A stretch of DNA of 64,000 bases. Source: Amphiscolops sp. MND2022. Lineage: Eukaryota. The notes below the pieces were generated by a model. The model was not told where the DNA came from. It saw only the letters and a program-made list of their open reading frames with translations, and did not search any database. The number at the start of each line of letters is the position of its first letter. The first letter of the stretch is position 1. This document shows positions 1 through 60,299 of the stretch, in pieces. Where the stretch lies: contig OZ076409.1 in the NCBI GenBank assembly GCA_964187785.1, positions 1,178,001-1,242,000 of the forward strand, in the 5' to 3' direction. The translations under genes and the position numbers were made by a program.

Positions 1-178
1 TTGTTTTGAAGTGTTCCTCACATCCGCCAGCATCAGGATGAGTTAAGGCAGCTAATTTTTTGTAATTACGCTTGATATCCTCAACGTCTGCGTCATCCTT
101 TACGAGAAGAAATCTCATACGGTGTGAACGGACGTTGGATGAGTTTTTTTTTGTTTCAGCTCCCTAATAATTTTTTCC
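1..178 (-). repeat. Partial second copy of J-domain gene 2 (runs off window start)
   Basis: 1-178 is near-identical to 3186-3363 and includes the LTHPDAGG codons. Confidence 0.9.
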
Positions 179-5569: not shown

Positions 5570-5588
5570 GATCCCACCCTTGTCACCA
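5570..5588 (-). promoter_or_regulatory. Primer-binding site, tRNA-Leu type
   Basis: TGGTGACAAGGGTGGGATC begins 1 nt after the LTR end and resembles the complement of tRNA-Leu 3' ends (TGGTGTCAGGAGTGGGATT / TGGTGGCAGCGGTGGGATT). Confidence 0.75.
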
Positions 5589-28300: not shown

Positions 28301-31112
28301 ACATTAAAATACACCGCGGGGAAAGAAATCAAATTCACGGACTTTATTAGTCGAAATCCCACCGAAATGGCGGAACCGGAAGAAAATTACGAAGAAGAAT
28401 TCGTGATTGACGCCATCGCGCAGCTTCCAACGGCAAATTACCGCATCGGCCGGATTTTCAACCAATCAGATCAGATCACTCCAATACGACTGTCATGCAT
28501 GATACGCGACGCACTCAGACAGGTACGCGCTGCAACAAAACAAACAATCATTCAAACTTTCAAACGACCGCTAATTACAATAACCATACCGTGACAGACA
28601 ATTATCATTTGAAATTAGAGAAGAACCAGACAATAGACAACAACAACAATTAAGATATGCAAGAACCGGAGAGATACCCCAGAGATGAAGAGGGGAGATT
28701 AAAAAACCATAGGGCGCGGACGACACAATCATGAAAATCATAGAAAGAAAAGATAATTCGCCGGAAACCAGAGATCTAGTGAGACAACGGATCGCATTAA
28801 CAAAACCCGGGAACATGCGCCATCACTACAACAAGAAACTAGAAAGACAAATTCTAGTGCCGAGAAGAAGAAGAACGAAAAAAAGTAAAACGAATCGATC
28901 TCCGACTAAAGCGGAAAGAAGAACATCGAGTAACCCACATCGGCGGGGGATATTTCAAAAACTTTGGTGACCAACCGTCACAGGAGCACCAAGAACACGG
29001 CATATCGGCAAAAACACCAATGGAGACCAATAGAGAGTCCGAGTCGACGGTCTCCTCCACCCCCGAAGAGCCAGTCACAACCCAAGAACCTGGCGCATAC
29101 CCGGCCATCCCGGTACAAGAATTTAGAGACGGGCCAATCGAGGAAATCGCTGTACGCTACGTACGCATCAACCGCGTAATAGAAAACAAAGCCATAAGGA
29201 ACAAGAAGCAAGAAGACAATGTTAGAGCGGCAGAAATAGACTTCATGCTTGATCTTGAAACTTTAATAAAAAAACTGCCGCAGACCCGGACTTGGTTGAG
29301 CTACAATGCTGCATCGAAGACAATAATCTCAGCCAGGCCCCAGAAGCCTACAAACAAATTATAAAGAGGCTAACCCACCGCTGGGGAATTACCATGGTCG
29401 ACGACAGAATTATCGTCCCAAGAAGCCTCAGATACGCAGCACTGAACGCACTCCATTCCGGACATCCCGGAATCAACAAGATGTGTGGCAGCCATATTCC
29501 GGTGGCCGAACATGCGGGCCGACATTGAGAAAAAACCAAAGACCTGCTCCGCCTACCTAAATGCCGGTAAGAATTTGAAATGTCAAATATCCAGTACCGA
29601 AAAAAAAACAAAAATAGAACCGCCGGAAAACCCAGGCGAAGAGATCCAAATGGATTTCACCGCAAACCTAAACAGTAAACATTTTGAACACTTCCCCTTC
29701 ATCCTAATTGCCGTCGATAGCAATAGCCGATGGCCAGTACCAAAAATTTGCAAAAATACGAATCATGAATCCGTAATAACATTCCTAAAGGAATATACCA
29801 ATATTTACGGCGTCCTGAAATCAATCAAAACGGATAAGGGAAGTGCATTCATATCAAAAGAGTTTAGTAAATATTGTAATGAAAACAATCTTACCCGTAA
29901 ATACGGTACAGCAAATTTACATATTGGAACGGGATTGGCTGAGAGAACCATCCAATCTCTGAAGAATTTAATAAAAGCCAACCTAGAAGACGGAACCAAT
30001 CTTAGAAATAATTTAGACAAAGCACTATATGTGCTTAGATATACAGCCCATTCTGAACTTCAAAAAACACCATTCGAACTCCATTTTGGACAAAAACCCA
30101 GAACGAAATTAACCAACCTAAAAAATGTTATTTCAGCCGACTCGAAAGACTTGTCCTTGTACATAACCCGAAGCTCTACGGGTGAAATCAAGTAAAAATT
30201 AAAGTAATACACAGAAAACTAATATCCAACCCATTACCATTTCAGAACAATACAACACCGACGAAACGGATAAACACCCGACAGACGACTACGGAGCAAC
30301 CGTCTTGCTCCAAATCAACCGAACCACAAACAACTTGTGTCTACAGAAGGAAAGAACCACCAAAGCCGAACAACCACGAAAACAGCGAAGATTGGATCCG
30401 AAGGAAAGACCAACCGAGAAATGAGAAGGGACAATTCACTTCTCCACAGAAAAACACCGGCAACATGACGGACTTAGACCCGAGCAACGTCTCAGATGAC
30501 GAATTTAACTGCTACAACAACAGTGAAGACAGGCCAATAAGCGTGAATGTGGACGATGAACTACAAATCCACCCGAAAGAAACGAGACTATCGCCGGAGA
30601 CAGGTATAAACCACGACCACATAATAACTAAACCAACAACGCCCGTAAGAAGGTCTAGAAGACTACCATTTCCAAAACAAATCGAAAAACTAGGCGGTAT
30701 CCCTAACCAAACCAATAATAACCGTAAAAGAATTAAACATAACCATAATTTGTTACAGGAAAGACGAACAACACCACCACAAAACAGTGAAGAAGAGGAA
30801 AACCGTAACATACGGACAAAAGAAGAAGTCAACTGTATTATACGGAACCAACACCCCAAAACCCCCAAATCACAAACCCACATGAAGAGGGGGGAATGTG
30901 ACATACGAAGGTCACAACCCAAAAAGAGCAACAGTGTTGTTGTCAAACAAACTCACAAACAACTGAATTAGCTACTGCTCTATTTATGTTCATACGATAC
31001 GATGTAGAAGATATGATACTCTTGCCATTATGTATTTGAGACAGATCCAATACAGCTGAAGAGATATTACTGTACCTAGCCTGTTTTAAACCTAGATTTA
31101 GTGATCTTAACA
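25374..31112 (+). mobile_element. Ty3/Gypsy LTR retrotransposon (Mag-like), decayed
   Basis: 216-bp TG...CA LTRs at 25374-25589 and 30897-31112 (6 mismatches counted), TSD GGAAG, PBS TGGCGCAGTAAGCA (tRNA-Ser type), PPT before the 3' LTR. Confidence 0.95.
25675..30195 (+). pseudogene. gag-pol: Gag with two Cys/His boxes, protease, RT, RNase H, integrase
   Basis: CGFCG...HTCPAKNAKCNSCQKMGHFARKC; IIDTE; LDARKLN, WLDD; TTDACGAGIG; HSGHPG, QMDF, KTDKGSAF, GLAERTIQ. Multiple stops and frameshifts. Confidence 0.9.
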
Positions 31113-41094: not shown

Positions 41095-41503
41095 CTAAAC
41101 CACAATCATTCTACGTGGTATATTTTAACTACAGTACTTGTCGCAAAAACAGCATCAATTCAACATTCAGTATATCATCTTTTTTATTTGATAGGTTAGA
41201 ATACAACAAAAGTAATCATCAACTTGATTGACTAGTATTCAAGCGAGTGGTCTGATGCTTGTTTTTTTTTCGTAGGTGACATCTGCAACGTCAGACATTT
41301 CAACGAGTATCATCATTTGACATCATTGATTAGAAGAAGTTAATGTTTTAATTATCAAAATGGAATGAACGTAATTTCAAGGCAGTTTGTTGACGTTTTT
41401 TCTTGTAGTTTTGTCATGCCAATAGAATGCCTCGAGAATGCAGCTCTTTATTGCCTGGAAAACAACATTTTACAGCGTTAAAATAGAATCAATGAATTGC
41501 AAG

Positions 41504-41904
41504 TGTGATGCCATGATGCATGTCCTCAAAGATTCTATAAATTTGAAATACTCTGAACTCTTAACCAAACCAATTAGTAAATGTAATCTAATTTAGAAAC
41601 TAAGAAACTTCATTTAATAGATCCTGTATCAAACTCCCCTGCTTCATCCTGTTGCTGTCACATTGTTAATTGATGTAACCTACCCTAGTTAATAGAATAT
41701 ATCTACTCGGAGAAATTGAGAATTCATCCTAGCAATCAGTCTTCCTCCCATACTCCAAGAACTGAGATCTCAGAAATAGATTGCACTCAGAACTAGCTAG
41801 CTACAAGATAAAAGATAAGACGACTCCGCTGTTAAAATCTTAGACTTCTTATGTCAGTTCTAACTCTTCTAAAAGAAACAACCACACAACTTTTTAACAG
41901 CTCA
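41504..41904 (+). repeat. 5' LTR
   Basis: Direct repeat of 59034-59434, followed by AT and TGGTGCGACC (PBS candidate). Confidence 0.97.
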
Positions 41905-42597
41905 ATTGGTGCGACCAAGAAAATTCTTTTCTGTCTCCCATTTATTTCACACACCTACAATTGTTGTACTTCTTTCCTTGACTTTCTCATACGCTATCTC
42001 TTTGTTCGACACACAGTTTCTCCACCTCTCAACATCGCCTATCGTTATTAACTTCAACGTTGCAACCAATTTCTATTTGAAATTGATTCGTGTTGCTATG
42101 GTTCTGACTGCGTTTCTCAACGTAATTCCTGTCAGTCATATTTCTTGGTTCTGACTACGTTTCTTGACGTAATTCCTGTCAGTAAAATTTTCGTTCCAAC
42201 CACCACTGAGTGAATTCGTGTTGGCTTTCTCTCTTTCTTCCGTTCCAACCGCAGACGTGCGATACGTGTTGGCCCTTCTTCAAGTGCTATCCAGCGATTC
42301 CTGCTAGTAAAAATCTCTTTGGTTCTAGCCGCTTGGATCAACTTTAAAGTTGGCACACATATTTAACACATATTTTCTACATAACATATTTATAATACCT
42401 TCTTATTCTCTCTTCTATAGTACAAACAGCATACAAAACTCTTTTAAAACTTGCTTACGGATCCAAATACACAACAATTAAGATATATAACACAGAAATC
42501 ACATATTTCTTTATATAACTTTCATTTTTCATACACCTATATACAACAAATTTTTGTACAACCTTTTTGACATACTCTTAATAAAACTTTATTGTAC

Positions 42598-42720
42598 ATG
42601 CCGCCTTCAGTAGACACTATAGTTAAACTTATTGTCTGCTTTTGGTTCTTTGTTGCTATCATTGCTGGTCTTGCACTTTTTCTGGACAAATTCTTAATTT
42701 CATTCATACCAAAATTTTGA
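42598..42720 (+). CDS. 40-aa single-pass transmembrane uORF
   Basis: MPPSVDTIVKLIVCFWFFVAIIAGLALFLDKFLISFIPKF*, translated by hand. Confidence 0.45.
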   Translation: MPPSVDTIVKLIVCFWFFVAIIAGLALFLDKFLISFIPKF

Positions 42721-42739
42721 AGTACAACCTTTTTCTTCT

Positions 42740-42979
42740 ATGTTAACAAGTATAGTACTACCTCTTTTTGGACTACTTAGTATCTACCACACTTTCCATA
42801 TACTTATCCAATATATACAAAAGCCATTCCTTCTTTTCATAAGTATTGCACTTACTATTTTCTTACAAGTTGCTTTCATAGATCAAATTTTACCATATAA
42901 CTCACACTTCAATACAAAATATCTTCTTTTCCGATACATCTATCCTTTATGGCAATCTTATTGTACTAATCAAACTTAA
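42740..42979 (+). CDS. 79-aa hydrophobic uORF
   Basis: Two hydrophobic stretches; ends 9 nt before the gag ATG. Confidence 0.45.
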   Translation: MLTSIVLPLFGLLSIYHTFHILIQYIQKPFLLFISIALTIFLQVAFIDQILPYNSHFNTKYLLFRYIYPLWQSYCTNQT

Positions 42980-42988
42980 TATCATATA

Positions 42989-45900
42989 ATGCTCCCCACT
43001 CCATTTACAGTCACTACTGACAAAAGACAAAATCGATCTCTTATACAAGATGTAACACCTTTTCTACAAAACATTATCTTTCAGTACACTAACCCACTTC
43101 CATTTGAAACAGAACCCCATATATTACATACTATTCCATTAGTACGAGAACATTGTGATTCTTACCTATATTATATCCACTATAAAACACTTGATATTAC
43201 ACCATCACAAACTCCTTTTCAAGTTATTTTTAACCCTGTTAAAGGAATAAATTCTGGAACATTTTATAGAACTATACACCCACAGAATATTACACTTTCT
43301 ATACAAGATGTTTTTCACACATACATGCAAAAACTCATTGAATTCAATGAACACCAAGACACACCACTTTATCGTCCTTCTCATTCACAAGAACTAAAAC
43401 ACCTATCTGAATATTTCGAGGTCCCCGATCTTGACACGAAAGTTCAAAGACATGATAACCCTCATTATTGGCTACAACGAGATATATTACAAATAAAACA
43501 TTTCCAGTTCAAATTCTTTACAAAAATTATCCTTACAGATGATACTATACCTCAAGTCAAAATTTTTACGCATTTCTTATTAAAGTTCCTTAGATTTAAC
43601 TATCAACTACTTTGGGAACAAAAAGACCAACAAGCTTATATTAACTTCCCACAAGCACTAACACATATAGAACTCCTACCATACATCATAAACAATCAAA
43701 ACAAACATTTACATTACATAGATCTTACTTCATTAAATGTTACACATTTTGAACAAATAAACCTAGATCACAACTTTGTACTTGAACATTCTGAAACTTC
43801 AGATAACAGACCTTATACTACATCTGATACTTCTCATACAACAACTCATAAAGAACAAACCTCTAATACCCAACCTTCATATATCAGACAACAATCAGAA
43901 CAATCAGAACAAACAGAACAAGAATCACCAACGCAAGAAACACTTGTTAACCTTTTTCAAAATCCTGATTCTCCTTCGAGACAACCACAATTACACGTCT
44001 CTGATATACAACTCCCAAATCCTTCTGAAACAAATACAATTCACATTACATCAGAACATTCTGAAGAAACAGTACAAAATACACGAAGTTTTACAATAAC
44101 GGATGATTCAAATCTTATAATCATTCCTACCCACACTATCACCCAAAACGAAATTACAAACCAAAATCAAGACAACACTTCAAATACTAACCCAGACAAA
44201 ACCTCTGTTTTATCTACATCTAATACTACTATTACACACCCCTCTCACACACAAATACTATCTCCTCGAAATTATAATCCACCTTCTGTTCCACCTCAAT
44301 TCTCAACTCAGATAAATACCCATAACTCTCCACAACAAAGCTCTTCAAATACACACTCTATTACACAGAACAATAATACAGTACATTTTCAAACACCAAC
44401 TCCACCATCATCTTCTGAAATACAATTTTTAACTTATACTCCAGCTCAAACCAATTCAGTACAAACTACACAGCCTACCTTAAACATTAACACAATTCAT
44501 TCCAATCCCTCTTCTAAATATACCACAGCCAGACAACTTTCTCGACCTCCTTTACAACCTATATTAACTAATCCAATATCATACAATCTTACCAGTACTA
44601 ATCCAAGTCATACACAACAATCTCAGATAAACTATAACACACACAACCAATTAAACACTCTTTCTTCCCAACATACATCCAATACAATCACTCCTACATT
44701 ACAAACTTCCCAATTTCATATACCAAATCCCCCTTCGACAACAATTAGAACTAACCCTCACCTTCATAGTACTTCAACTACTTCTTTACCTAATATTTCC
44801 AATAACCCCACATACAATACAACACCTCCATCTACTATGTCTCATAACACTATGTCACACCCAACATATATTAACTCTTCTACTTCTATATCAGAACCCA
44901 TTAAACCTTTTGATGGACTCGATCACAACTATACACCTGAAGAATATTTACAACATATTGAGGCACGTGTTACATTTTCCTTAGGTTTACAACCTACATT
45001 GGAACATGAATATAAATTTTGGCACGCCCGTCGCATGGCTTTTATACAATGCTCTTTAACAGGTACAGCACTAAGCTGGTACATTCGTTTAAACGACACT
45101 TATAAACAAGATTGGCACGCTTTTGTACAAGCTTTCAAAAAACAATTTTCCTCACAAAAGAACGCTTACTATGCTCAAGTTGAAGCCCTTAATTTAACAA
45201 AGAAAGACAATGAAACAGTACGTCATTTTGCACTCAAAGTTCAACAACTGGTTGAAAAAAAGGCTGTTGTAATGAGAATGCATCTACTATAAACCTTAAA
45301 TGTAATGAACTCTTTACAAAAGGACTTCCAAAAAACCTTAAAGATTTTGCAAATAAAAGACAAGTAAAACACACCTCCACTGTCTTAGAACCTTCAATTC
45401 CTTTTCATACTTTGGTAAAACTTGTTGACGCCGAAGATATTGCAAACGACAAAATCAGAACACACGATCTTGCACTTGAAATCAATAATATTACAAAACA
45501 ATTGAACACTCAAACTCTAGATCACCCATCTCAAGAACAACTTATGTATACACAACCCAAAGACCCAAATAACAAAAATAAACCTGCATATAAAAAATAT
45601 TGCTCATATTGTCATAGAACAAATCACTCCATTTCTGCTTGTTTCAAAAAACAACGAGATGACGAAGATTAACGAGAAGCATATGCTCGATCAAAATCTC
45701 CACAAAAATCATTCGTTCAGTACTTTCGTTCTCCTTCCAATGACAGAACAAAATACTATGATAATCGATACCGAAGTCGAAGCACTTCACGAGACAACTC
45801 TTATAACCAAAAATATTCACAAAACCGATACCGTTCTACATCTCGAGATAGAGACAAATTTCGTTATGACAAAAGTACTACTCCTCCACACTACTCCAGA

Positions 45901-46128
45901 TCAAGATATGACACATACAAACGTGATTCTCGATCTTACCGTTCTCCTTACAGATCTTCTTATAGATCCCCATATAGACAAAACTCTCGTCCTAGATACA
46001 GATCACGCTCTTATTCAAGAGATAACAAATTCACCAAATACACAAATTCATATAGACCACCTTCAAGACCAAGAGACTCTCGATTTTCTAGATCTCGCTC
46101 ACACTCAAACTCCAGAAATAAAATCAAT
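42989..46128 (+). pseudogene. gag: gag: long N-terminal extension, capsid, CCHC knuckle, RS-rich segment
   Basis: IKPFDG...IQCSLTGTALSWY capsid motif; frameshift in the A-run near 45255; CSYCHRTNHSISAC; one TAA at 45670-45672, then an open frame into pol. Confidence 0.85.
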
Positions 46129-49100
46129 ATGATACAACAACAAGAGCAAACTGACCCTATCAAATTTGAAGTACACATGTATCACCCAACAGCAATGGCA
46201 AATGCTGTCACACCTACAAGTTGGTTTTATACTCTATATGTACACACCCCATCAAGTATAGTACAAAGAGACAACCCATCTAGACTAGAAATTGCATTCC
46301 TCCTAGATAGCGGTGCTTCCATTTCTGTACTCAATTATCCAACATACATAACTCTTACAAAACTTCTCGATATCAGACCAAATCACACCTCTGATGTTGG
46401 ACCAACTCGAAATTCCAAAACACTAACTGTTGCAAACCAAACTGAAGTTCCTATTTTACATTATGCAAATGTAATTCTCAACACCACCATTGACGAAAAC
46501 TCTCGTTACTTTTCAGTACCCTTCGCAGTAGCTGATATCAAATACAACATCCTTGGCACACCATTCTTTGAAGACAATATACAAAACATAAATATTCAAG
46601 ACTTTACACTCGAATTTAAATACCAATCAACAACACACCCAAATTATACAAAATTCACAACACTCCTATCTAAAGATTATCCATACTTCTCTTACATTTA
46701 TAGAATTAACTCAAAAACTCAGATACGTCTAAAACCCAAATCTTCCAAAATTGCACACTTTCCGATCAAAAATTATCATAATCTTCATTTTACAACCACA
46801 CCACAAAACCACTTCTTTCCTTCAGTACCTCATACCTATTTTGCTACCAAATTCCGTTCAAACTTCAATTTCATTGAAGTATTCACAGACGACAAACCAG
46901 ATATTTGTGCAACTATTATTCAGAACACTTCAAAACATATTGCAACCCTACCTACAGGACATATTGGATACATTGAAGTTCCAATTACTAATGAAAAACC
47001 TAATTTCTTCCAAGTCAACGACATTAATACTTTAATACACAATGTTACCCATACTTATCATCCTGATATTACTGAACCACTTCCACAGACCAATTATATT
47101 GTACAATATGATCCTACAACCCCTCCTCCACAATTCTCTCTACATCAAATTTATATGACAAATAACGACATTCCAAACCAAACTTCTCCTTTATATAACG
47201 TTCAGCCTACTTCTCATACTTCCGAAAAACGCATTTTCCCTTCTCTACCATATACTTCTGAAAATCTGAAATTTATTAATAAATTTAACTTCCAATTTTC
47301 TGACCTTACAGATTCAGAATACATTACTCTTTGCAATATGTTACTCAAATATAAAACATGTTATGCAACCCATAAAAACGATGTTGGAAAAATTTCAACA
47401 CCCTTTCGTATAAGACTTAAACCAAATGCTCAACTTATGACACAACGTCCTTCCAAAGTCCCTATTCACTACCGAGACAAACTTAATGTACTTCTTATAG
47501 AACTCGAAAAATATAACATTATCAAACAAATTGGTTCTTCTCCTCAAGACAAACCTGTTTATGGCACAACTTATTTAAATCCTCTTATTATAATCCCCAA
47601 GGGAGATACAATTAAATGTGTATTAGACGCTCGACATCTTAACTCCAATACAGAACAATCTGATGAATCTTGGCCTATTGAACCTCTTGCTCCACAACTA
47701 GCACGCGCAAACAAAAAGTACAAATCTGCTATTGACCTTATGTATGCCTATGCACATACACCTCTTGACGAAGATACTATAAAACTTACCAGTTTCTCCT
47801 CCGGAGACAAACTTTTCTCTTTTATCCGAGGCTTCTATGGTCTCAAAGGACTACCAAACTTCTTTACAAAACAAATGTCTACTTTCTTTAAAACTCTTAT
47901 AGAACAAGGTTTCGCTCTTGTCTACATTGACGATATATTACTTTTATCTGATTCTAAAGAACACATGTTTCAACTCATAGAACAATTACACATTTTTAGT
48001 ACAAAAACTAATCTTAAACTAGCCCCTGAAAAATCCTTTTTCATGCTTCTTAAAGTCAAATTCCTTGGACATGAAATTGGTTACAATACAATTAAACCAA
48101 TCCACTCAAAAATTGCAGCTATTCATAAGATCCCTTCTCCAACTGGCAAAGTTGCCCTAATGAGTTTCATTGGCGCACTCAATTTTTACACCAAATTTAT
48201 TGAAAAACTACATATTAACCTCAAACCGTTTTACGATCTTTTACATGAAAACACTCCTTGGAAATGGACAGACGAACGCGAAAGTCTATTCCAAAAACTT
48301 AAAATGTCTCTCACTTCTGAAACAGAATTAACAATACCAAATACAAAGCATCCATTTTTCATTACAGTTGACGCTTCCCTTATTGGATTAGGCGCTGTCT
48401 TATTCCAATTAAATGAACAAAACAAAAAGAAAGTCATATCGTACAACTCTCGTATACTTAATCCACAAGAACAAAAACTCTCCACACTTGATAGAGAACT
48501 TCTTGGTATAGTACACGCACTTCAAATCTATGAATTTCTCATCATAGGTTCTCCCCATCCAATACATATTTTTACTGATCACAAACCTTTATTACATTGT
48601 TTTACAAAGAAAGGTAATCTCAGTCCTCGTTTCTACAGAGCTCAAATGCAACTGACAAAATTTTCAAAACTCAAAATAATTCACACCCCTGGAAAAAATC
48701 TCTCTGTTGCCGATATGTTGAGTCGCTCATTCACAAAAGCTGAATTACAACTTAACCAATTAAAACATAAACACCTCCCACCACAAATCGATTTTGCACT
48801 TTTACAAGATAACACTCTCAAACCTGTACATTACTTAATAAAACATGAAGAAATTCTACCTCATCAAAAACATGACTCTCATCCAATTCTTGCTGATTAT
48901 GGTACAGATCAATTCTCTATTCGTATCAATGATAAAGGAAATGACATTGTTGTCAAACCGTTACAATCCTTCTCATTCAAATCCATAACTCCTTTCCAAA
49001 CTAAGTTCAGGACACCTACCAAAAAGAACAACAAAACCCTTCATCAACAATCTCTCTTACTTAATGATACTGACGTTACAAGTGATGACGAAGATCATAT

Positions 49101-51183
49101 TTACACCAGAATTCCAAAATCTAACTCTTCCTTCTTACAAGACACAACATTACAAACAGAAAATTATTCTACTCTTAAACAACCAACTCACAACACCTCA
49201 CAGAAATCAGTTTCTGCAATAAATGTACAACCAAATTTACCATCTCTCACACACTGTCAACAAATCGTACCTTTTTATGATACACCATTTTTTAAGTACA
49301 AAAACTATTTTCAAGGTTTCTTCCTTCTCGATGATTACTCATTAGACATAAAAACTCTTCAACAACAACAATCTCAAGATCCGGTTCTTAGAACTGTTTA
49401 TTCTTGGTTATTAAACAATGAAAAACCCGAATTTGTAACACCTCTTATCACTGGTACTCCATTTCTACATGTATATTACAAAAGATTTTCACAACTTTTC
49501 ATTGACGAATCCACAAATCTTATTAGTCTATATATTACAAACCCTACTGTTAATAACCAATCCTCTACTCCAAATTTTGTACAAGACACTATTCGTATAT
49601 GCCTACCTTTCCGACTGTTTAAAACTGTCTTTAACAAACTTCATGAACACTCTCATACTGGTATGAAAATCACCTTCAATACATTCAAACAATATTACTA
49701 TATCCCATTCCTTGAAAAATGGCTTTCCATTTTTATACATGATTGTATTGAATGTCAACGAAACAAACACTTTAATATGAAAATTCAAACTGCTCCCACA
49801 CAATCTTTTTCAGAACATGCTCCATCTTTCAACTATCGAATTTCAATGGATACTAAAGGACCTATTAATCCTCCTTCTCACAACAAATCCTATATACACG
49901 TGATAATTGACGCCTTTAGTCACTTTGTTGTTACAGTACCCATCAAATCAAACAACGCAAAGACTGCTATCAAAACTCTCCTACACCATTCGATCATTAA
50001 ATTTGGACCACCCATATATCTTGTCACTGATCGTGGATCAGAATATGTTAATAAAGAAATGGCACACCTTTGCACACTTATGGGAATTCGTCATTCTCCT
50101 CGAACAGCTTATTCTCCTTGGACAAACGGCCTTGTTGACGTACAAAATAGAAATCTTGGTACCCATTTACGAATGTTCTTACATGATACACCTAAAGATT
50201 GGGCATTCCAAGTCCATTTGTACGCTTATGCACATAACTCACAACCACTTTCAGAACTCAACATTTCACCTCACGAAATTGTTTTCCACACTCGACCCAG
50301 AATACCCCTTACCTTTGATTTGAACCTTAACCGAGACACCTCTAAAACATGTATTTCACGATATTGCTCTCAACTTCCAGCACACTCCCATTATGATAAA
50401 TCCGATTTAAACCCATTTTTCTATAAAACACTTTCAAAACCCATACCACATTGGTTTCTCGCTGTAGAAACTGCTATGTTACAAATTTATTCTACAGTAT
50501 ACGAAAACACTCAACGAAAAGTCAATTCACACGCATACATTACAAAAACTTACCATGAAGGTAAACCCCTTCCTATTGGTACCTTTGTTTTAAAACGCAA
50601 TTTTACCCACGTTCACTTTTCTGACAAACTAAAACCCCTTCGGATTGGACCATATAAAATTCTTGACAGATTATCAGACGTCACATATGCACTACTTGCA
50701 CAAGATGGCTCCACAGTACACGTCCAAAGAAATCATTTAATTCCATACTATCCAAAAGAACCACTCTTATATCCACACCTGCGTAGTTTTATGCGCTTTT
50801 CAGACACAACTCAATTTCAAATTCCACAACCTACCAAATATGCAAACAGTGATTCTTCTCCTTTTAACTCTGACGAATCGTTGTCAGAAGAAGATTCCCA
50901 AACATTTGTAACACCATCATCATTTAGTACATCCAATCAGAATACACCACCTATAACATCCAATGACAGTTCTTTGACTCCCTCAACCAATGACAACTCC
51001 TTATATAGACATATAATTAATACCCCTCATACTATTATCTCTAATGACAGATCAAGACACTCCTCTAATAACCAAACCACTTCACTTCCTCCTCTAATTG
51101 ACAGAACCACAACAACTACCTATAAACTACGACAACAGCCCAAATTAGATTATAGACTTTTTATTACACCTTCACAACTGTAA
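46129..51183 (+). CDS. pol: pol: aspartic protease, RT, RNase H, integrase (1684 aa)
   Basis: LLDSGAS; LDARHLN, YIDD; VDAS...DRELL...TDHKPL; HEHSH..CIEC, SMD, TDRGSEY, GPY. The catalytic Glu position reads NGLVDVQNR. Confidence 0.95.
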   Translation: MIQQQEQTDPIKFEVHMYHPTAMANAVTPTSWFYTLYVHTPSSIVQRDNPSRLEIAFLLDSGASISVLNYPTYITLTKLLDIRPNHTSDVGPTRNSKTLTVANQTEVPILHYANVILNTTIDENSRYFSVPFAVADIKYNILGTPFFEDNIQNINIQDFTLEFKYQSTTHPNYTKFTTLLSKDYPYFSYIYRINSKTQIRLKPKSSKIAHFPIKNYHNLHFTTTPQNHFFPSVPHTYFATKFRSNFNFIEVFTDDKPDICATIIQNTSKHIATLPTGHIGYIEVPITNEKPNFFQVNDINTLIHNVTHTYHPDITEPLPQTNYIVQYDPTTPPPQFSLHQIYMTNNDIPNQTSPLYNVQPTSHTSEKRIFPSLPYTSENLKFINKFNFQFSDLTDSEYITLCNMLLKYKTCYATHKNDVGKISTPFRIRLKPNAQLMTQRPSKVPIHYRDKLNVLLIELEKYNIIKQIGSSPQDKPVYGTTYLNPLIIIPKGDTIKCVLDARHLNSNTEQSDESWPIEPLAPQLARANKKYKSAIDLMYAYAHTPLDEDTIKLTSFSSGDKLFSFIRGFYGLKGLPNFFTKQMSTFFKTLIEQGFALVYIDDILLLSDSKEHMFQLIEQLHIFSTKTNLKLAPEKSFFMLLKVKFLGHEIGYNTIKPIHSKIAAIHKIPSPTGKVALMSFIGALNFYTKFIEKLHINLKPFYDLLHENTPWKWTDERESLFQKLKMSLTSETELTIPNTKHPFFITVDASLIGLGAVLFQLNEQNKKKVISYNSRILNPQEQKLSTLDRELLGIVHALQIYEFLIIGSPHPIHIFTDHKPLLHCFTKKGNLSPRFYRAQMQLTKFSKLKIIHTPGKNLSVADMLSRSFTKAELQLNQLKHKHLPPQIDFALLQDNTLKPVHYLIKHEEILPHQKHDSHPILADYGTDQFSIRINDKGNDIVVKPLQSFSFKSITPFQTKFRTPTKKNNKTLHQQSLLLNDTDVTSDDEDHIYTRIPKSNSSFLQDTTLQTENYSTLKQPTHNTSQKSVSAINVQPNLPSLTHCQQIVPFYDTPFFKYKNYFQGFFLLDDYSLDIKTLQQQQSQDPVLRTVYSWLLNNEKPEFVTPLITGTPFLHVYYKRFSQLFIDESTNLISLYITNPTVNNQSSTPNFVQDTIRICLPFRLFKTVFNKLHEHSHTGMKITFNTFKQYYYIPFLEKWLSIFIHDCIECQRNKHFNMKIQTAPTQSFSEHAPSFNYRISMDTKGPINPPSHNKSYIHVIIDAFSHFVVTVPIKSNNAKTAIKTLLHHSIIKFGPPIYLVTDRGSEYVNKEMAHLCTLMGIRHSPRTAYSPWTNGLVDVQNRNLGTHLRMFLHDTPKDWAFQVHLYAYAHNSQPLSELNISPHEIVFHTRPRIPLTFDLNLNRDTSKTCISRYCSQLPAHSHYDKSDLNPFFYKTLSKPIPHWFLAVETAMLQIYSTVYENTQRKVNSHAYITKTYHEGKPLPIGTFVLKRNFTHVHFSDKLKPLRIGPYKILDRLSDVTYALLAQDGSTVHVQRNHLIPYYPKEPLLYPHLRSFMRFSDTTQFQIPQPTKYANSDSSPFNSDESLSEEDSQTFVTPSSFSTSNQNTPPITSNDSSLTPSTNDNSLYRHIINTPHTIISNDRSRHSSNNQTTSLPPLIDRTTTTTYKLRQQPKLDYRLFITPSQL

Positions 51184-51273
51184 TCTAGTCATTCTATCTG
51201 TTGGCTCACTCAAAACTAGTCACTCCGGTTGAATGAATGAAATATAACCCATAACAAGTTATCTCAAAGATAA

Positions 51274-52515
51274 CCTGTTGAAAACACTTCAACAACCCTG
51301 GATTCTTCCTCTGATATATCTCCATCAGCTCCAAGTATTCCTTCCCCACCTGAATCTTCAGTATCTAGCACCACAAACTCTAGTAATGTAACTCCTACTA
51401 CTCCTTCTAAAAGACCAAGATCATACATCTCTGAAACCACCTCTTCTTCACTTCTTCACAGACCACCTATAACCGAAATTCCTATAAACACTCGTCCCCA
51501 ACAAACTCCTATTAACACTCCTATTATACACATACCAAACCCTGAAAGTGTTGAACAATACGTAAATTACAAACATCCTACAGCTATCAAAACTGTTAGA
51601 CTACAACCTCAACTTAATCTAGTACAAATCCCTGACACTGAATATACAAAATTACCTTCACTGAAACTACCATCAGAACTTAGTACTACTTCTTCAAAAC
51701 TTTATCCACCACTAAAACCTCTTCGAAAACCTTCTACATCACTCTCAAATCTTTTAGACAATAATACTTCAGACTACGCTCCATCACGAGACACAAGCTC
51801 ACTTTTTGTACCTACTCATAGATATAATCTTCGTGACCTCCCTTCACGTAGACTTAGTACAGACACTTCAACACTCAATTTTTCCGCTCTTTCTAGCAAT
51901 TCTGCATTACGACTTGTAAGACAACACGCTCAACCATTGTCCTCTGACACACCATCTTCAGAACTCTTTCAATCTCCTTATTTTACTTCTGGTTTTGAAA
52001 CCGCTTCATTACTCTCATCTAACCCACAGACTGCATTTCTATCAGGAGATCTCTTTTCACAAGTAGTAATCCCTACTCCTGTTCCTGCACATATTAGACT
52101 GCCCGAATACTATACTGCAGAACACTCTAGACCTCCAACTCCAAATTTTGCTGACTATCCACTTAGAGTCGATGGTATAACCATCTACGACCCACAAAAC
52201 GATCTCCGATTTCCAATTCTTGCAGAACGTTTTATTAACAACAACGACCTCTTATCTCACAAACGCAAAGAAACAGAACTAAAACGTCTCCAGACATCAA
52301 ATCTAGAACTTAAATTTGAAGTCAAAGTTAAATTTCAAGAATTAAATCCACACCCAATATTTCACGTTTCTAAGATAGAACATAAAACCTCTCCTGCTCC
52401 TTTCGAAGTAGTACATATTGAATTTGAACGCGATCTTAATATACCCACTATCACATATGGCAACAGTGTCTTCTGTAACCCATACTTCGGTCTCAAATAT
52501 ACAACATCTTCTTAA
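51274..52515 (+). pseudogene. Ser/Thr/Pro-rich open frame (~413 codons, no ATG), probable env leader
   Basis: Stop-free by hand translation; overlaps the env signal-peptide frame near 52500. Confidence 0.55.
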
Positions 52516-55163
52516 ACCCTACATAACCTTTTACATAACAACTCTAATTCTTTATTTACATTTTTTTAACTCTACCTTTTCCATACCTATAACACCCTCT
52601 GACACAGAAAACTATCTTCCATCGGATGACCCGAATATTACAAATCTCATGGTTTCTCATTATGACTGTGCAAAACAACACAATCTGAGACAATTTAATC
52701 TACTTAATGTAAAACAATGCACTGAAGCTCCTTCCGACATTAAACATGCCAGTGTTAAAGCCCGTGTATATGTCCGAGCAAAAGCTAAACGTATCAAAGC
52801 TTTCAAATGCGTTGCTTATGCAAAGAAAGAAAGGAAAATATGCTTTCAAGGATCTGTAAAATAACGTCGTGTTGATCGAACCGTATGGAATCATAATACA
52901 TTACCGCTCCGTTACTCTTGATCCGGTAGAATGTAAAAACATTATACGCCATTTAAATGGTACAAATGATAAAATACTGAATAACCTTCAATACAACAAA
53001 ACCTTTACACTCTTAGAAGACCATTATTTTCAAGAACGTTTAGAACAATATCAAACTCCTTTCACTGTATATCAACTGAACAAAATGTATACAGGTACAT
53101 TTACATTTATGCCTGCTGATAAAAACTGGATATATGACCCTACAAAAAAACCTTATCATAACTGTCCTGCTCATCATCAATTCGAAGTTAACTTAGTTAG
53201 TTGGCGACTAGAAATTTCTGAAGTAGAACTTACATATGATGACACATCAAATGACATGATAATTGATGGACATACATTACCCTGCTACTTTGCAGATGGC
53301 TTCTGTAAACCCACTGCAAAAACTCCTTTTACTCTTGTTTGGTTTAATGATGATTATTGTCTAATTTTTACCCTACAAGACTTTATTGGACGTATGACTA
53401 AAATTGAAGATAGATATTGGATTGAAACAGACTCTTTTGTACATTCTCCACATCCAATAAAATCTAAAACTGCTTCTGGCATAAAAGGTACAGAACACCC
53501 CTATGTTTATGCCCCTCATACACAACACCCAAATAATCCAAGTCTTTCAAGATTTGAAGTTTTCCCTACAGCACACACATTTTGTGGTAAACCAGACCCT
53601 CTTTATTCTACACAATATTCAGACCTTTTTGTTACATACACTGATGGTTTCAATATGCATACAGGACAACCTAATCCTCATTCCATGATTGATGAGTATA
53701 TTTCTGGTAAAATAGTATTGGACACTTCAAATAACAAATTTGTTTTTCCTGCATTAAATGTATCAAACAATTTTGCTACCATTGATTATGATGCACATAT
53801 AAACACCAAAATCGATTATACTATTAATCATGTTTTCCGATCAATGACAGTACAAGAACTAAATACTCTTCATACAATATGTGAACTAGAACGAAATCAA
53901 CTCCTTACAATACTCGCAATGTCAGGACAAAACCCTCAACTTGCTGGATTCCTTTTAATCGGTAATAGAAGTAACTTCTTATACGTTGAAGGCTCAACCG
54001 CCTGGCTTTACGACTGTCCTCATTTTTTATCTCCTTTATACAAAGCAGATAGATGCTTTGACCGTATACCCATACATTTTAAAGATACCTTAATGTACGT
54101 TGATCCTATTACAAGACAAACTTATGATTATGCTACACCAATTACATGTGATAGTAATCCACGTAACATTATTGAACTAGATCCTGATTCAGACGATCAA
54201 GACTTTTACATTCTTGGACCTGAACCTATCAAACGCAAACCTCCACTAATGTTTACACCCTCACAAATCAAAACTACAATACGCCCTAATACTTTTACAG
54301 CCCAAGATGCTGGTATATATTCAAATGCAGAATTTGATCATTTTTGGAACCGTATTTTATTTTCTAAACATTCTGATTCTACACTCCAATTACTAGGCAA
54401 AGCTCTTAGTTATTCATTCATTTCATCTAATACTCCAAATTACGATGCAGATTCCCCTCAAGACTCTGGTAATCCTTACAATACATTACGCATAGGACTC
54501 CACGATAAACTCTTGAATTTAACTCCTCTTTTTACACCTACATGGTTTTCAGAAGCTTTTATTGCACTTTTTGGATACCCTTGTTACATTCTCACACAAT
54601 GTGGTATATACTTTTCTACATTTCTTTTCGTACAAGCTGCTCTTACGCTCATTGTGAAACTGTACAAAACAATATCTAATTAATATAATCTCAAAAATAA
54701 TATTACTTCACTTAGTTCTATAGCACATGGTTTTTTTAATGTTCTTACAGCACGAATGGTCAGTGACCTCCATGAGACTCAAAACAGAAAACCCAAAAGT
54801 ACACTTTTCAAATCCAAATCTTTAGATAATTTTATTGACACTTCTCCAAATTTAATTAACCATTCTACAGATGTTACTTCCCCTCCACCTTTCTATACTA
54901 AACGACCTAACAAAATTCAATTTCCTAAATTTAACTTCTTTCCGAAACGACACCACAATTCTCACCATAAAACGACTCCACTTCCTTTCTCTCCTGTTCA
55001 ACATCCTACACTTCCTAATTATACTCATAAAAACTTTCACTCGAATGACAATTTAACTACTCAACATGACACTTTAATTAACAACCCTGTCACTTCTACT
55101 ACGGATACACCAATTAAAATTTATTCGCGGATAAACTATCCTTTTCCTCCTCTATTTTCTTGA
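52500..55163 (+). pseudogene. env: env: class III (herpes gB/chuvirus-like) fusion glycoprotein
   Basis: Hydrophobic signal, HYDC..NVKQC..AFKC, ICELERNQL..NPQLAG, YDC..CFDRIPI..YVDPITR..TPITC, then a TM segment and tail. TAA at 52862 and 54681; frameshift near 52908. Confidence 0.8.
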
Positions 55164-55428
55164 ACACTCTCTCAGTTTTTCTCTAACTCTCTTTCAGTAC
55201 ACTTGCCTACTATTTCTTCACAATTGCTACTCCTCCACCACTTGAAACTCTTGCCGAAGTTCATCTTCCTCAGCCCAATAATACTTCTCTCATAATAACC
55301 GTCTTCAAAAACTCTTCAACTAAAGTTGACAAATCCACTCGTTAGTGTAATTTATAGTACTTTGACTTTAAAGTGCTAAGGCCTCTTGGAATAGATAACA
55401 CTGTGATTGTTGATGTTTTTAAAAAACA

Positions 55429-56757
55429 ATGACGCAAGCACAAATTGACCTACAAACACAGCTTGAACAAGCAACCCCAACAGATCTAATAACTAGACCT
55501 CTTTCAAATGATTCTCCTGTTCTCTATATTGAGACTTCAGAACAAACACCTCCAACTTTCCTTGAACCAATGGAACACACAAAAGTTGAAAATGAAAATC
55601 CAAAACCTACTCCTCCACAAGATGATACTGATCATACACAATCGGCACCACCTCCTCCCAAAAAGCGATATGAAATAATGAAAGATCCAATCTTTCTTTC
55701 ATCACCAATATATCCTCCTTCAATACCTTCAAAAATTTCACTTTGTACGAATCGCGATGATCATTTGATCTCAATTTTTTCTACTGACGATTTCGTCTTC
55801 AAAGCACAACTAACTTCTCTATATATGCATCCTACTGACTATTCATTTCGCTTATATGACAAAAATCAAGACTTCTTCACATCCATTGCTTCTAAAATAA
55901 TGGGTCCATAACAATATTGGCTCGAGAATGGAGTTAAAATTTTCTCTCTCCAATTCAATTTTCTTCGACCTTCTATATACGATCTCAAAACAGATGAATC
56001 TGATCCATCCTTTCTCTCTATAGCACAAAAAGCTACTCATCATCAGACATATACTAAATTTCTACAATACACGAAACCACAAAATCACATTTTTGTCAAT
56101 TACAAATATACATCACCGTTCACAATGACAAATATGTACACTCTGGACCACTCCTGTATAACAGGCTACCTTCGGAACTATGACCCTATAAAGCAATACT
56201 TCTGTTTGCTTCCATATAACAATACTTCACGTCCACTTATTGTACCTCAAGAATATCTCATACATTACGATGATTTTTTGTTGCCTTGCAACATTCCTAC
56301 TCAAATTGCAAAACCTCTTACTGTTATTAAACAACTCGTTTCTTCTCCACTTCACGATAAAGATAGAACGTACTATACAGCACTCTACAAACAAACGTAT
56401 TCCTACAATGAACTTCTCTTTTTCTCTGCCAAAGCTATCTCTTTCATGGTACAAGCTGAACAAAAAACTGAACATAAATCACACGCTTCACCCATAAAAA
56501 ACGCTCCTGACAAACTTTCCTCTGTAATAAACAACCGAACACTTCGCGACATAACAAATTTACTTGAACCCTATAAACGAAACTCCTCTGAAACACCTAT
56601 CACAACACTCACACATATACTACACTGCTACGACAGAACACACAAACTCCTTCAGACACTCGATTTAGACTCTCAACGCATCACTCAATCATCCCAAGCA
56701 ATCCAATCTGCTTTGGAAACTATAACTACTCTTTTTAACTCAACTAATCTTCATTAA
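55429..56757 (+). pseudogene. Accessory ORF (~442 codons, one in-frame TAA at 55909-55911)
   Basis: The 160-aa and 210-aa ORFs share a frame with no other stop between them; includes PPPPKKRY. Confidence 0.6.
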
Positions 56758-57177
56758 TGTTCTTCTACAGGTAATATAAAATTCTTAATTTTTCTTCTAT
56801 GGTACACTCTATGATACATCTGTGACACATCCTTCAAGGTATTTTCATTTTTACCTACTTCTTTAAAGTAAATTCTTGCTTTTGAATGAAATCTCAGGAC
56901 TGTTTTTTAAGTACACTAATTTTTCCTACAGTACATGTCAAAAAACTAACTATTTCTACTAAAAACACTACAATACAAGACATACAAGACAATATAGCAC
57001 AACACTAAATATGATACATTCCAGCTCCAAATTTTGTTGTACATCTTTGACTTGATATTGACATTTTTTCTTACACTTCCTCTGTTTTAGAAACATCTAT
57101 TCTTCCTCCTCCTTCATCCAAATTCTTTCAGAACATCCCAACTTCTCTTTCTTCGCATTCTTCCAACCCTCGTCATC

Positions 57178-57630
57178 ATGGCTCCAAATGCTGAAACAAA
57201 CGACATTATCACTATGACTTCAGAGTTTTCGAAAGTGCATAGTCTCAAAGCCGCCATTTTTCACACCATGGCATTCAAACTCTCGCTTGAAATTCACAAA
57301 AACAAAATTACGCCAAAATGTCTCATCGCTTTCTTAAAAGTCCTCTACAATGTCACGCAGATAAAAAAGAAAAAAATTACTTTTGAGCAATACTCGCGGA
57401 TCCATCTTCAAGGACCTAAAATTGCCATTTGCGAAACGGCCTCTAATGTTGTTTTCGTCCTAAATTCTTCCTTTACTTCAAAGGATCAGTATTTTCGTAC
57501 TGCTCTCCAAGAAGCCACTGACGCTTTTAATCATATGCTGAAAGATTTCGGGTATACTCAGAAATTAGAACTCTATGACCCGATCCAACACCAAACTCAT
57601 CCTCCATCGCAAAACTCTTTCTTTCAATAA
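57178..57630 (+). CDS. Accessory ORF, 150 aa, unknown function
   Basis: Intact ATG-TAA ORF inside the LTRs; splice-acceptor-like site at 57065-57090. Confidence 0.55.
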   Translation: MAPNAETNDIITMTSEFSKVHSLKAAIFHTMAFKLSLEIHKNKITPKCLIAFLKVLYNVTQIKKKKITFEQYSRIHLQGPKIAICETASNVVFVLNSSFTSKDQYFRTALQEATDAFNHMLKDFGYTQKLELYDPIQHQTHPPSQNSFFQ

Positions 57631-57855
57631 TCTCTATAACACAAACTTCTACTTACTTCTATTTCACTCTTCAACTGCATTTCATCTCCAAATCCTTCAT
57701 CTTTCTTCGATGATGCATTGAAATGTGGTTGCTGATCACTCCTCCCAAGAACTTCTCCTACACATGCTGACACTCTTCACTTCACCCATCCACGATGATC
57801 AACAACATCCATCTCCATTTTGGGTTCATCGACGTTGCCAAACTTTGTCCTCGTC

Positions 57856-57972
57856 ACTGGTCTTCACACCTCACGATGACTTCTTGACTGGTCTTCATAC
57901 TTCAAATGCTGACTTCTTGACTAGTCTTCACACCTCAACTGCTGACTTCTTGACTGGTCTTCATACTTCAAT
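57856..57972. repeat. Short tandem repeat, 31-33 bp period, ~3.5 copies
   Basis: ACT(G/A)GTCTTCA(C/T)AC starts at 57856, 57887, 57920 and 57953. Confidence 0.8.
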
Positions 57973-59033
57973 GGCCAATACAAATTTCAAACTGAACTGT
58001 ATAATCACTTTTAACCAATATAACCTGTAACTTATTTTAATCAAATTATAACTTTAATACAGTCTAGTGCTATATACTCTTATCTAATCTTTAGTGCTAT
58101 ATAATCTTATTTAATCTTAATCTTCTCTAATCGTAGTATAATTACCCCCATTAAAAATAATCCTTCCTAAATTCTACCTATAATTATCCTTGTAACCACA
58201 ATAATATCTAGTTCCATTGTATTGTGTATCGTACAATAACTTAATCTTATCTCATTATGTTGATACTTCTATACTACACTTTAAAAATATATCTCCAATA
58301 CCCATCTTTTACAGAACACAAGTCGTACTTACAGTACAAGAAATTTTCTAAGATTTTTGGACAAAATTTTTCTTTAACAAAACATGTTATACAACTTCGT
58401 TTTAATCCCCAAAAGCCTTCCCAACAATTTTCCAAATTTTCTTTAGAACTCTTCAAAAATGTCACTTCTAGTTTTCCAATGTTTGAAACTTGAAATAGCC
58501 AAAGTTTTTTTCAACTCTTGCTTCTGCTCTACTCTTCACTTTTGTTGAAAATGAACTCTCACTAGAACCTTGACTTTTCGAAACTTCTTCACTTTTGGTT
58601 CACATACCCGCCAATGTTGGTTCACAACTCATTGACAACTTCACGCTTTACTTCTTCAACTTGAAAAATTTTCAATGCTGACTAACTCATGTTGGTGAAA
58701 GAATTTTTCGAACAAGCCGATGGCTGATACGAAAAAGAAACATGAAATGATAAATAGTTGTCAACAATAACTTCAAAGAACTTGTCAGTCAAAGAAACTG
58801 AAAGAACTTGAACCTTGCTTGAACCTTTTTGCACCAATTGAAACGTCTATGACGTAAGAAGTCAAATCGTCTTAGGTTGTTCTCACTCCTTAAGTATGGT
58901 ACTCTATAAAACAAAACTCATGCAACTCTAGTACAACACAAATGAAACAAACCCATGCATATAACAAAAACTTCTAGAACTCCTCAAACCCAAACTGCAT
59001 ATATGTAATTTAATTTTTAAATTCCCGGTTGAT

Positions 59034-59434
59034 TGTGATGCCATGATGCATGTCCTCAAAAATTCTATAAATTTGAAATACTCTGAACTCTTAACCAAAC
59101 CAATTAGTAAATGTAATCTAATTTAGAAACTAAGAAACTTCATTTAATAGATCCTGTATCAAACTCCCCTGCTTCATCCTGTTGCTGTCACATTGTTAAT
59201 TGATGTAACCTACCCTAGTTAATAGAATGTATCTACTCGGAGAAATTGAGAATTCATCCTAGCAATCAGTCTTCCTCCCATACTCCAAGAACTGAGATCT
59301 CAGAAATAGATTGCACTCAGAACTAGCTAGCTACAAGATAAAAGATAAGACGACTCCGCTGTTAAAATCTTAGACTTCTTATGTCAGTTCTAACTCTTCT
59401 AAAAGAAACAACCACACAACTTTTTAACAGCTCA
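59034..59434 (+). repeat. 3' LTR
   Basis: Direct repeat of 41504-41904. Confidence 0.97.
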
Positions 59435-60299
59435 CAAGAATGATCTCTTGAAACAAATATAAATTACACAGAAATTTACTGCCAGCTGTCACTTGATTGG
59501 TTTTATGGTGACAGCCCAGATATATGATACATCAGGGTACCCAGGAGGTAAAGACTCAATTTCTCAAATAAACATCAAACCGCAACAAATTTTATAAACA
59601 ATTGATAAAAAAGTCCCACGGCCGAAATTTTGATTTTTTTCTTCTGAAAACAGACAAAAATTGCAAAAGTTACAACACTTGGCTTATTTTTGACTGTTTT
59701 TTGAAAGTTATCCTGCAAAAAGCTCGAGGTCAATTTTATATCTTGATTCAGATCAAAAACATTCGATTTCAGAATTTTCCTTCTAACAAAATTAGACGGG
59801 AAAAATGCAATTTTTTAACTTCTTGAAAATGTTTCAACGGGATTTCAATTGTCCTTGGCTGTTCTTTTTTGTTGAAAAAAACATTTGAAGAAGAAGTGTC
59901 AGTATGAACGAAAGAACGGTGTAAAGGCGCCAAAATTCATCTTCCCCAATAATTCCCCGATACACCAACTTTTTACTTTCATTGCATTTCATAACAAAAA
60001 GGATAATTGTATTTCTGGACTAAATCTGAAAAGCTCTGGCTCTCTGGAATTTTTTGGATGTCAAAAGCATGCCTTGAAAGAAAAAAGTGCTCTATTAAAG
60101 TTTTCACCTGTCATATTAGCTGTCTTCAGCTTTTTGGTACCAAAAATAGTTGGCATCAAAACATTATCTCGAAAAAATTGTGATCTTGCACAAATCTGAA
60201 ATAGCATTTTTTGTGTGAAAAATCACAAAAAATAAAACATTAAAAGTCCAATTCTTTTTTTTCTTTTTTTGATTTTTTGAAGACAGACTCGAAGCGACG

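Follow-up and report, generated by a model that had tools for sequence, protein, structure and literature searches.

Introduction

Ty3/gypsy elements with envelope (env) genes of the glycoprotein B (gB) type have been reported from most phyla of Metazoa, and many nearly identical copies are often present (Chary & Hayashi, eLife 2026, PMC13524379), and according to the same paper a chuvirus-like glycoprotein adjoins gypsy pol genes. Its supplementary table holds 221 ENV_HSV rows; the word "accessory" is absent from its main text, and the authors state that other arrangements of open reading frames (ORFs) were not searched for. Env-carrying Ty3/gypsy elements have been found throughout the animals, but descriptions credit them with three genes. 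Here we describe a long terminal repeat (LTR) retroelement with more genes than these, located in the assembly of Amphiscolops sp. MND2022 at positions 41504-59434 of a 64,000-nucleotide (nt) stretch of contig OZ076409.1, which was analysed as a whole and is called the window below. Coordinates are those of the window, and features lie on the forward (+) strand unless marked otherwise.

The window element has the same gag-pol-env order, Ty3/gypsy type of pol and gB/chuvirus class of env as the gB-type "ancient errantiviruses" of Chary & Hayashi (PMC13524379), and it likewise exists in many similar copies. An earlier note on the window, made from its sequence alone, had presented a gB-type env on a Gypsy backbone as a rarity; since this combination has already been published across most metazoan phyla (PMC13524379), the central surprise of that first reading is not new. 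The differences lie elsewhere. The window element measures 17.9 kb from LTR to LTR, compared with 9.3-13.0 kb in PMC13524379, as measured in those 16 of the first 30 of its 221 ENV_HSV rows that give LTR coordinates, and, unlike the gB-type elements as that paper describes them, it carries three further conserved ORFs. A 12-mer of its primer-binding-site (PBS)-like sequence does not occur in the table of PMC13524379, nor does the PBS column contain its reverse complement, which is weak evidence that the window family is not listed there. A Chuviridae-like glycoprotein is also carried by mosquito BEL/Pao elements (Dezordi et al. 2020, via PMC13524379). Their envelope is, like that of the window element, of the chuvirus-type class III, but the backbone is BEL/Pao in the mosquito elements and Ty3/Gypsy in the window.

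Complex retroviruses (lentiviruses, deltaretroviruses and spumaviruses) have accessory genes around and after env, a long leader and a strongly skewed composition of the sense strand. The window element shares these traits, and it also resembles them in having selected genes beyond gag, pol and env, and in an arrangement of an upstream ORF and env that is reminiscent of vpu-env. It differs from them in that their pol is of the Retroviridae type and their env of class I, whereas here pol is of the Ty3/Gypsy type and env of class III, and its accessory proteins have no detectable relatives among the accessory proteins of complex retroviruses. Rodriguez and colleagues reportedly described, in 2017, LTR retrotransposons with additional ORFs in bdelloid rotifers. 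Such elements are also known from plants (Vicient & Casacuberta 2020, PMC7264820). In the plant and rotifer elements the extra ORFs accompany gag-pol, some of them are captured or shared between element types, and the elements are enlarged; both the hosts and the ORFs are other than those considered here. A spliced RNA of the Ty3/gypsy-type element Cer1 of C. elegans encodes the CERV protein, on which export of the genomic RNA from the nucleus depends (Sun et al. 2023, PMC10309623). Cer1 has one novel gene beyond gag and pol where the window family has three. For extra genes of Gypsy-type elements, CERV comes nearest to a functional precedent, by analogy; we liken it to one of the three, ORF-X, by functional model and not by sequence relation.

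Structure of the element

We consider it likely that positions 41504-59434 represent a recently inserted, defective copy of a very abundant env-carrying Ty3/Gypsy element that encodes a fused Gag-Pol, an Env of 901 amino acids (aa) and three additional genes, here named ORF-P, ORF-X and ORF-B, the last of which lies in a slot whose content has been exchanged. The element is a complete LTR retroelement of 17,931 bp with all genes on one strand (+). Its two LTRs (5' LTR, 41504-41904; 3' LTR, 59034-59434) are each 401 bp long with TG..CA ends, and they align with 2 mismatches over 401 bp (99.5 % alike); a target-site duplication, CAAG, is found on both sides (41500-41503 and 59435-59438). A 13-mer starting with TGG, read from the sequence as PBS-like, begins 2 nt past the 5' LTR (41907-41919). 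The near-identical repeats, the target duplication and the recent insertion deduced from them in the earlier note are therefore all borne out, and so is the damage that it had mentioned: this copy has 4 in-frame stops and 2 frameshifts, which lie in gag-pol (frameshift near 45256-45292, stop 45670-45672), in env (stop 52862-52864, frameshift near 52905-52911, stop 54681-54683) and in ORF-X (stop 55909-55911).

Stop-to-stop frames of at least 80 aa number 20 on the + strand of the element, against 2 on the - strand. At the base composition of the element, 5.8 % of codons would be stops, and at this rate the chance of an open frame of 413 or 465 codons is about 2e-11 or 8e-13, respectively. The frames of 413-1,836 codons found in the element are far beyond chance.

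The longest of them, the pol frame of 1,836 codons, has the domain order protease, reverse transcriptase (RT), RNase H and integrase, which is the Ty3/Gypsy order. An aspartic protease motif, LLDSGAS, can be read from the translation of 46300-46320. RT and RNase H occupy 47704-48663 (RVT_1, E 3.1e-13; RT_RNaseH, E 1e-24), with the YIDD motif at 47923-47940 and RNase H from 48265. About 320 aa separate RNase H from the zinc finger of the integrase (49612-50697), which comprises an H2C2 zinc finger (PF17921, E 1.3e-8), a catalytic core (PF00665, E 2.5e-17) and an SH3-like C-terminal domain (PF24626, E 4.9e-5, below its cut-off). The best relatives of pol among solved structures are the Gag-Pol of yeast Ty3 (7q5b, E 6e-49) and the Ty3 RT (4ol8, E 2.7e-36), with caulimovirus and foamy virus enzymes ranking below them, while no BEL/Pao family of Pfam matched the element at E<=0.01. 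Judged by its domain families and best solved relatives rather than by a tree, pol belongs to Ty3/Gypsy and not to BEL/Pao.

The env gene (52457-55163) encodes a fusion glycoprotein of class III (chuvirus/gB type), as indicated by its match to PF24664 (Monjiviricetes_fusion; E 6e-19, 67.9 bits, cut-off 27). When the intact family protein was used in a protein-language-model search, the nearest clusters were Monjiviricetes_fusion, then herpesvirus gB and then rhabdovirus G, all of them class III fusion proteins. The window copy is 87 % identical to the open 901-aa protein P0001 over aa 1-150 and 95 % identical over aa 152-898. PF24664 is the only Pfam family matched by env; there was no match to the baculovirus F-type envelope family, which is that of the classical insect errantiviruses (gypsy, ZAM, Idefix type). 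Neither a search of P0001 by sequence against solved structures nor a scan of the env alignment against IMG/VR returned a relative. On this similarity, Env belongs to the class of herpes gB and the chuvirus glycoprotein. The Pfam families, the Ty3 matches and PF24664 together agree with the earlier description of a full-length Ty3/Gypsy-type element with a chuvirus/gB-class env and extra genes.

Additional open reading frames

ORF-P (51274-52515, 413 codons) lies in the gap between pol and env. It is rich in serine, threonine and proline (S/T/P), contains no in-frame ATG, and is split from the end of pol by four stops. ORF-X (55429-56757) follows env and has 442 codons from its ATG, and ORF-B (57178-57630, 150 codons) comes last and is intact in the window copy. 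The earlier note had counted two accessory ORFs; the extra genes are real, but the conserved ORFs are three, and if the fused gag-pol frame is added, the genome complexity that it had called unusual is somewhat greater than it claimed.

The same genome contains a sister family whose env is 56 % identical to that of the window family, and whose gene layout was taken from one 9-kb stretch (L059). Its counterpart of ORF-P (L059:598-2034) has 478 codons, is free of methionine, lies in the pol-env gap and is 35 % identical to ORF-P (E 3e-35). The counterpart of ORF-X, with 528 codons, is placed after env and is also 35 % identical (E 1e-65); a basic cluster is conserved between the two, as KKR in the window family and KKK in the sister family. 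In the last slot of the sister family (L059:7210-8151) there is a 313-codon S/T/P-rich ORF with no similarity to ORF-B and no Pfam match.

ORF-X relatives are numerous in databases: 451 cluster representatives were found at E<=1e-3 in a library of 1.84 billion proteins, most of them fragments and one of them near full length, at 41 % identity. For ORF-X there was no usable match in the protein atlas, no solved-structure relative by profile and no relative in IMG/VR. Its AlphaFold2 model, which is poor, gave only generic long-helix matches against 48,161 PDB chains (Z<=6.3, residues 361-442) and nothing at E<=0.001 against the viral predicted structures of BFVD. Run on such a model, these fold searches do not tell whether the fold is new or a known one.

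It could be proposed that the extra ORFs arrived with env from a chuvirus-like or other enveloped virus and act as structural or entry cofactors, not as regulatory or counter-defence genes; ORF-X would then be nucleoprotein-like or matrix-like and ORF-P a mucin-like surface partner of Env. We regard this origin as unlikely. The S/T/P-rich composition of ORF-P is indeed like that of mucin-type domains, but the translations of both ORF-P and ORF-X have no N-terminal hydrophobic signal or membrane segment; and while the two ORFs directly flank env, are conserved together with it in the sister family, and adjoin an Env of the Monjiviricetes fusion family, they match no Pfam family, and the BFVD search mentioned above, with its poor model, linked ORF-X to no viral protein.

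Among the matches to the accessory region (n=42) are the window itself, 22 full-length matches at 97-98 % identity, 15 at 91 % and 4 partial ones, and the whole difference between the 98 % and the 91 % group is confined to one patch, at about 56990-57740, in which two subfamilies can be compared. This patch, the swapped cassette, consists of ORF-B with about 190 nt upstream and about 110 nt downstream. Within it the subfamilies are 58-92 % identical in 40-nt windows and 70-76 % in 200-nt windows, compared with about 98 % in the flanks. In one pair of copies, the proteins of the two ORF-B alleles are 76 % identical, with a non-synonymous difference (pN) of 0.145 and a synonymous difference (pS) of 0.76, which is saturated; most mismatches are at third codon positions, and the length, 179 stop-to-stop codons, is exactly the same in both alleles. 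In the protein database ORF-B has 610 clusters, formed at 90 % identity; most of these proteins are exactly 150 aa long, and among the top 120 the identities grade from 98 % to 77 %. Three longer proteins, of 273-287 aa and without known domains, contain ORF-B, and among these there is no sign of a host gene of origin. Pfam searches at E<=10 with 30 ORF-B sequences gave seven unrelated single-member matches. A relationship to PRP18, suggested by weak profile matches to solved structures (E 0.028 and 0.056), has no Pfam backing and was rejected as unsupported.

These sequences are most simply read as those of an old gene under constraint, ORF-B, which recombination has transferred between related co-circulating lineages. 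Exchange between retroelement lineages implies co-packaging and template switching; the content of the ORF-B slot would have been exchanged when the polymerase switched template between co-packaged RNAs of related families. If a small gene with saturated silent divergence moves as a cassette between backbones that are 98 % identical, this would show directly that endogenous invertebrate retroelements are co-packaged and recombine.

Two minor observations concern the same region. One sibling copy (L031+L032) has a 160-bp duplication of 57020-57179, just upstream of the start of ORF-B and inside the recombining patch. Just past the cassette, in the 3' non-coding region (57631-59033), a 33-nt tandem repeat is present in 3.6 copies (57856-57971), and its copy number varies between the subfamilies.

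Could the extra ORFs be functionless passengers, open for no other reason than a very recent expansion of the family from few master copies? Copies within the family are 97-98 % alike, so that open frames there prove little, and no function can be assigned to the extra ORFs, but we judge this explanation to be very improbable: ORF-P and ORF-X are still open in the sister family at 35 % protein identity, and the ORF-B alleles, saturated at synonymous sites, differ by only 14.5 % at non-synonymous ones and are of equal length. We also compared the 3' region in 20 further copies, the best-scoring matches to the accessory region (10 per subfamily). Within the family, in 14 of the 16 copies with an open ORF-X, its pN/pS was 0.44, against 1.10 and 0.70 in two shifted frames. 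These comparisons indicate that ORF-P, ORF-X and ORF-B are all kept open under purifying selection and are real protein-coding genes.

Copy number and sibling copies

The 1.07-Gb assembly was searched with parts of the element, and 40 matches were scored per query out of the first-look candidates. The LTR gave 2,732 first-look candidates, with 40 of 40 scored matches 99-100 % identical; env DNA gave 4,271, with 39 scored non-self matches 97-98 % identical across the full 2,752 nt; and the post-env (accessory) region gave 2,970. With thousands of candidate matches in the 1.07-Gb genome the family is very abundant, and for this reason it matters for the annotation of this genome. Of the 50 genome matches scoring best against P0001, 49 have an env without internal stop, a proportion biased upwards by the choice of the best-scoring candidates; they represent a closely related subfamily in which env is kept open. 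The window copy has decayed, but env is still open at many loci of its family. The earlier suggestion that the element is potentially infectious finds no support from any copy, and the copy in the window is defective. On contig C11, at about 57.06-57.10 Mb, four family LTRs in both orientations lie within 36 kb, and several more occur within the next 1.5 Mb, which suggests a local pile-up of insertions.

LTR pairs led to four full-length siblings, which lie on three chromosome-scale contigs other than that of the window. Each sibling is colinear with the window copy over the whole length between and including the LTRs, at 96.8-98 % identity, and they differ from it only by small duplications and insertions or deletions, for example a 284-bp tandem duplication in one of them. 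Three have 4-bp target duplications of their own; in the fourth, the 3' end motif was missed by the exact-match search. Stops and frameshifts differ from copy to copy. The earlier note had raised the possibility that the env/accessory region is a nested insertion absent from sibling copies; as this region is present colinearly in 4 of 4 siblings, it belongs to the element. A composite origin of the 18-kb structure, by nested insertion or by chimeric assembly of a Gypsy element with an env element unrelated to it (e.g. BEL/Pao), might have been suspected from its length, as the published gB-type elements are much shorter (9.3-13.0 kb where measured, in 16 rows), but it is refuted by these siblings with their separate contigs and target duplications, and has practically no probability left given that env and the accessory region adjoin at equal spacing in further copies, that no internal LTRs or second pol are found inside the element, and that pol is closest to Ty3 and matched no BEL/Pao family.

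Expression and possible functions

Several observations tell against the interpretation of the locus favoured here, that of an abundant env-carrying Ty3/Gypsy element with three extra genes. In the terms of Chary & Hayashi the element would be errantivirus-like, but this is an assignment by gene content and not by an RT tree. Of the 20 copies compared, 16 have an open ORF-X and 14 an open ORF-B, counts that are biased towards well-kept copies because the 20 are best-scoring matches; among the four full-length siblings, ORF-X is broken in all and ORF-B is open in only one. The AlphaFold2 models of both proteins are poor, with a mean predicted local distance difference test score (pLDDT) of 54.7 for ORF-X, for which a long C-terminal helix is predicted, and 50.7 for ORF-B. 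At E<=1, Pfam gave only noise-level matches for ORF-P, ORF-X, both ORF-B alleles and the ORFs of the sister family. No tRNA could be matched to the PBS-like site, the 3' LTR is not directly preceded by a polypurine tract, the last 20 nt before it not being purine-rich, and a motif scan of the sense strand for splice donors found 0 sites at >=8 of 9 positions.

The last result bears on how the genes would be expressed. Translation of the downstream genes would take place on subgenomic RNAs, probably produced by splicing. As no strong donor consensus was found, the splicing step is without sequence support, and the motif scan, which also returned 5 acceptor-like sites, none of them informative, decides nothing either way. 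Between the stop of pol and the ATG of env there are 4 ATGs where about 12 are expected, in both families, and none of them is in the frame of ORF-P. This ATG-poor, methionine-free region might let scanning ribosomes reach the start of env on a shared RNA, in which case ORF-P would start at a non-AUG codon or in an upstream exon. The vpu-env RNA of human immunodeficiency virus 1 (HIV-1) is a precedent for an env that is reached past an upstream ORF on a shared RNA. Coupling of ORF-P and env by termination and reinitiation was considered and rejected, since the layout of stop and start differs between the families: ORF-P overlaps the start of env by 59 nt in the window family, while in the sister family its stop lies 1 nt before the ATG.

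As to the functions of the extra genes, our proposals are tentative. ORF-X, with its basic cluster and predicted long C-terminal helix, might act in the nucleus on the RNA of the element, as CERV of Cer1 or Rev do; such a role as a CERV/Rev-like nuclear handler of element RNA is a possibility that we hold with considerable doubt. We give slightly more credit, though still less than even, to the idea that ORF-B is a host-interaction or counter-defence factor. If this is true, its strong protein constraint combined with shuffling between lineages is as expected for a gene in conflict with host defences, and ORF-B would be a handle for finding host defences against such elements.

Taken together, these proposals would make the family an invertebrate counterpart of the complex retroviruses, that is, a still-active env-bearing Ty3/gypsy lineage with a Rev/CERV-like ORF-X, a shuffled host-interaction gene ORF-B and a replaceable gene in the last slot. 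We put this forward as a speculative model that is rather less probable than not. Within it, the last-slot gene would be a replaceable module, because the ORF that occupies this slot in the sister family is unrelated. Should the three extra genes be functional, complexity of the lentivirus/deltaretrovirus type arose independently outside Retroviridae.

Leader and Gag-Pol

The leader (41905-42988) is 1,084 nt long, has only 4 ATGs and contains a 47-nt tandem repeat (42099-42190). The upstream ORFs (uORFs) that the earlier note had mentioned are indeed present in it, two in number, with 40 codons (42598-42720) and 79 codons (42740-42979). Both encode strongly hydrophobic peptides that resemble membrane segments, and both are open in 4 of 4 siblings, an observation with little power to show selection because the siblings are about 98 % identical.

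In the family, gag-pol (42989-51183) is a single frame of about 2,730 codons. In all four siblings the frame is open from gag into pol across the site of the window stop 45670-45672, so the native arrangement is one fused gag-pol frame. The N-terminal part of Gag (42989-45040) consists of about 650 aa of low complexity, rich in threonine, serine, proline, asparagine and glutamine, which makes Gag unusually long. A capsid-like Retrotrans_gag domain (45041-45256; PF03732, E 4.4e-9) stands at the end of the 770-codon gag frame and is followed by a CCHC zinc knuckle of the nucleocapsid type, recognised as a motif in the translation (45601-45642). The gap between nucleocapsid and protease contains a stretch of 145 aa rich in arginine, serine and tyrosine (45688-46122; 32 R, 33 S and 19 Y), which resembles the RS domains of splicing factors.

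Strand composition

The coding strand of the element is strongly poor in G, as the earlier note had seen: its composition is A 34.4, C 24.5, G 10.1 and T 30.9 %, compared with 18.7 % G in the rest of the window, and the GC skew along the element ranges from -0.23 to -0.71. The sister family is G-poor too, with 7.5 % G in the stretch measured. The window also contains a second, degenerate Gypsy-like element (25588-30971, +; RVT_1, RNase H and rve), whose sense strand is A-rich (AT skew <=0.52) and not G-poor. Since G-poverty is common to the sister family but not to this other Gypsy-like element, it is a property of the lineage and not of the host.

Differences occurring in single copies were taken from 21 copies. 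G-to-A editing of the APOBEC type was rejected as the cause of the G-poverty, since such singletons arise at 0.134 per G for G>A and at an equal 0.138 per C for C>T. Transversions to G, on the other hand, are 2-3.5 times rarer than their complements (C>G at 11/668 sites against G>C at 15/261; T>G at 26/916 against A>C at 55/950). This rarity would fit a bias of the replication cycle; the counts are small.

Other sequences in the window

A search of the whole 64-kb window against Rfam gave 0 matches. Outside the element, two stretches of the - strand (5095-5616 and 1970-2773) contain an ORF that weakly matches PF24664 (E 4.6e-5, below the cut-off) and whose C-terminal stretch is almost identical to that of an ORF nearby with a DnaJ domain (PF00226, E 4.1e-10); by sequence, a fragment derived from a glycoprotein may here have been joined to a DnaJ segment that was duplicated. 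At 7402-9887 (-) there is a fragmentary non-LTR retrotransposon with endonuclease (PF14529) and RT (PF00078) domains. The only clear host gene seen in the window is an exon of the autophagy gene ATG9 at 118-669 (-) (PF04109, E 5.9e-26).

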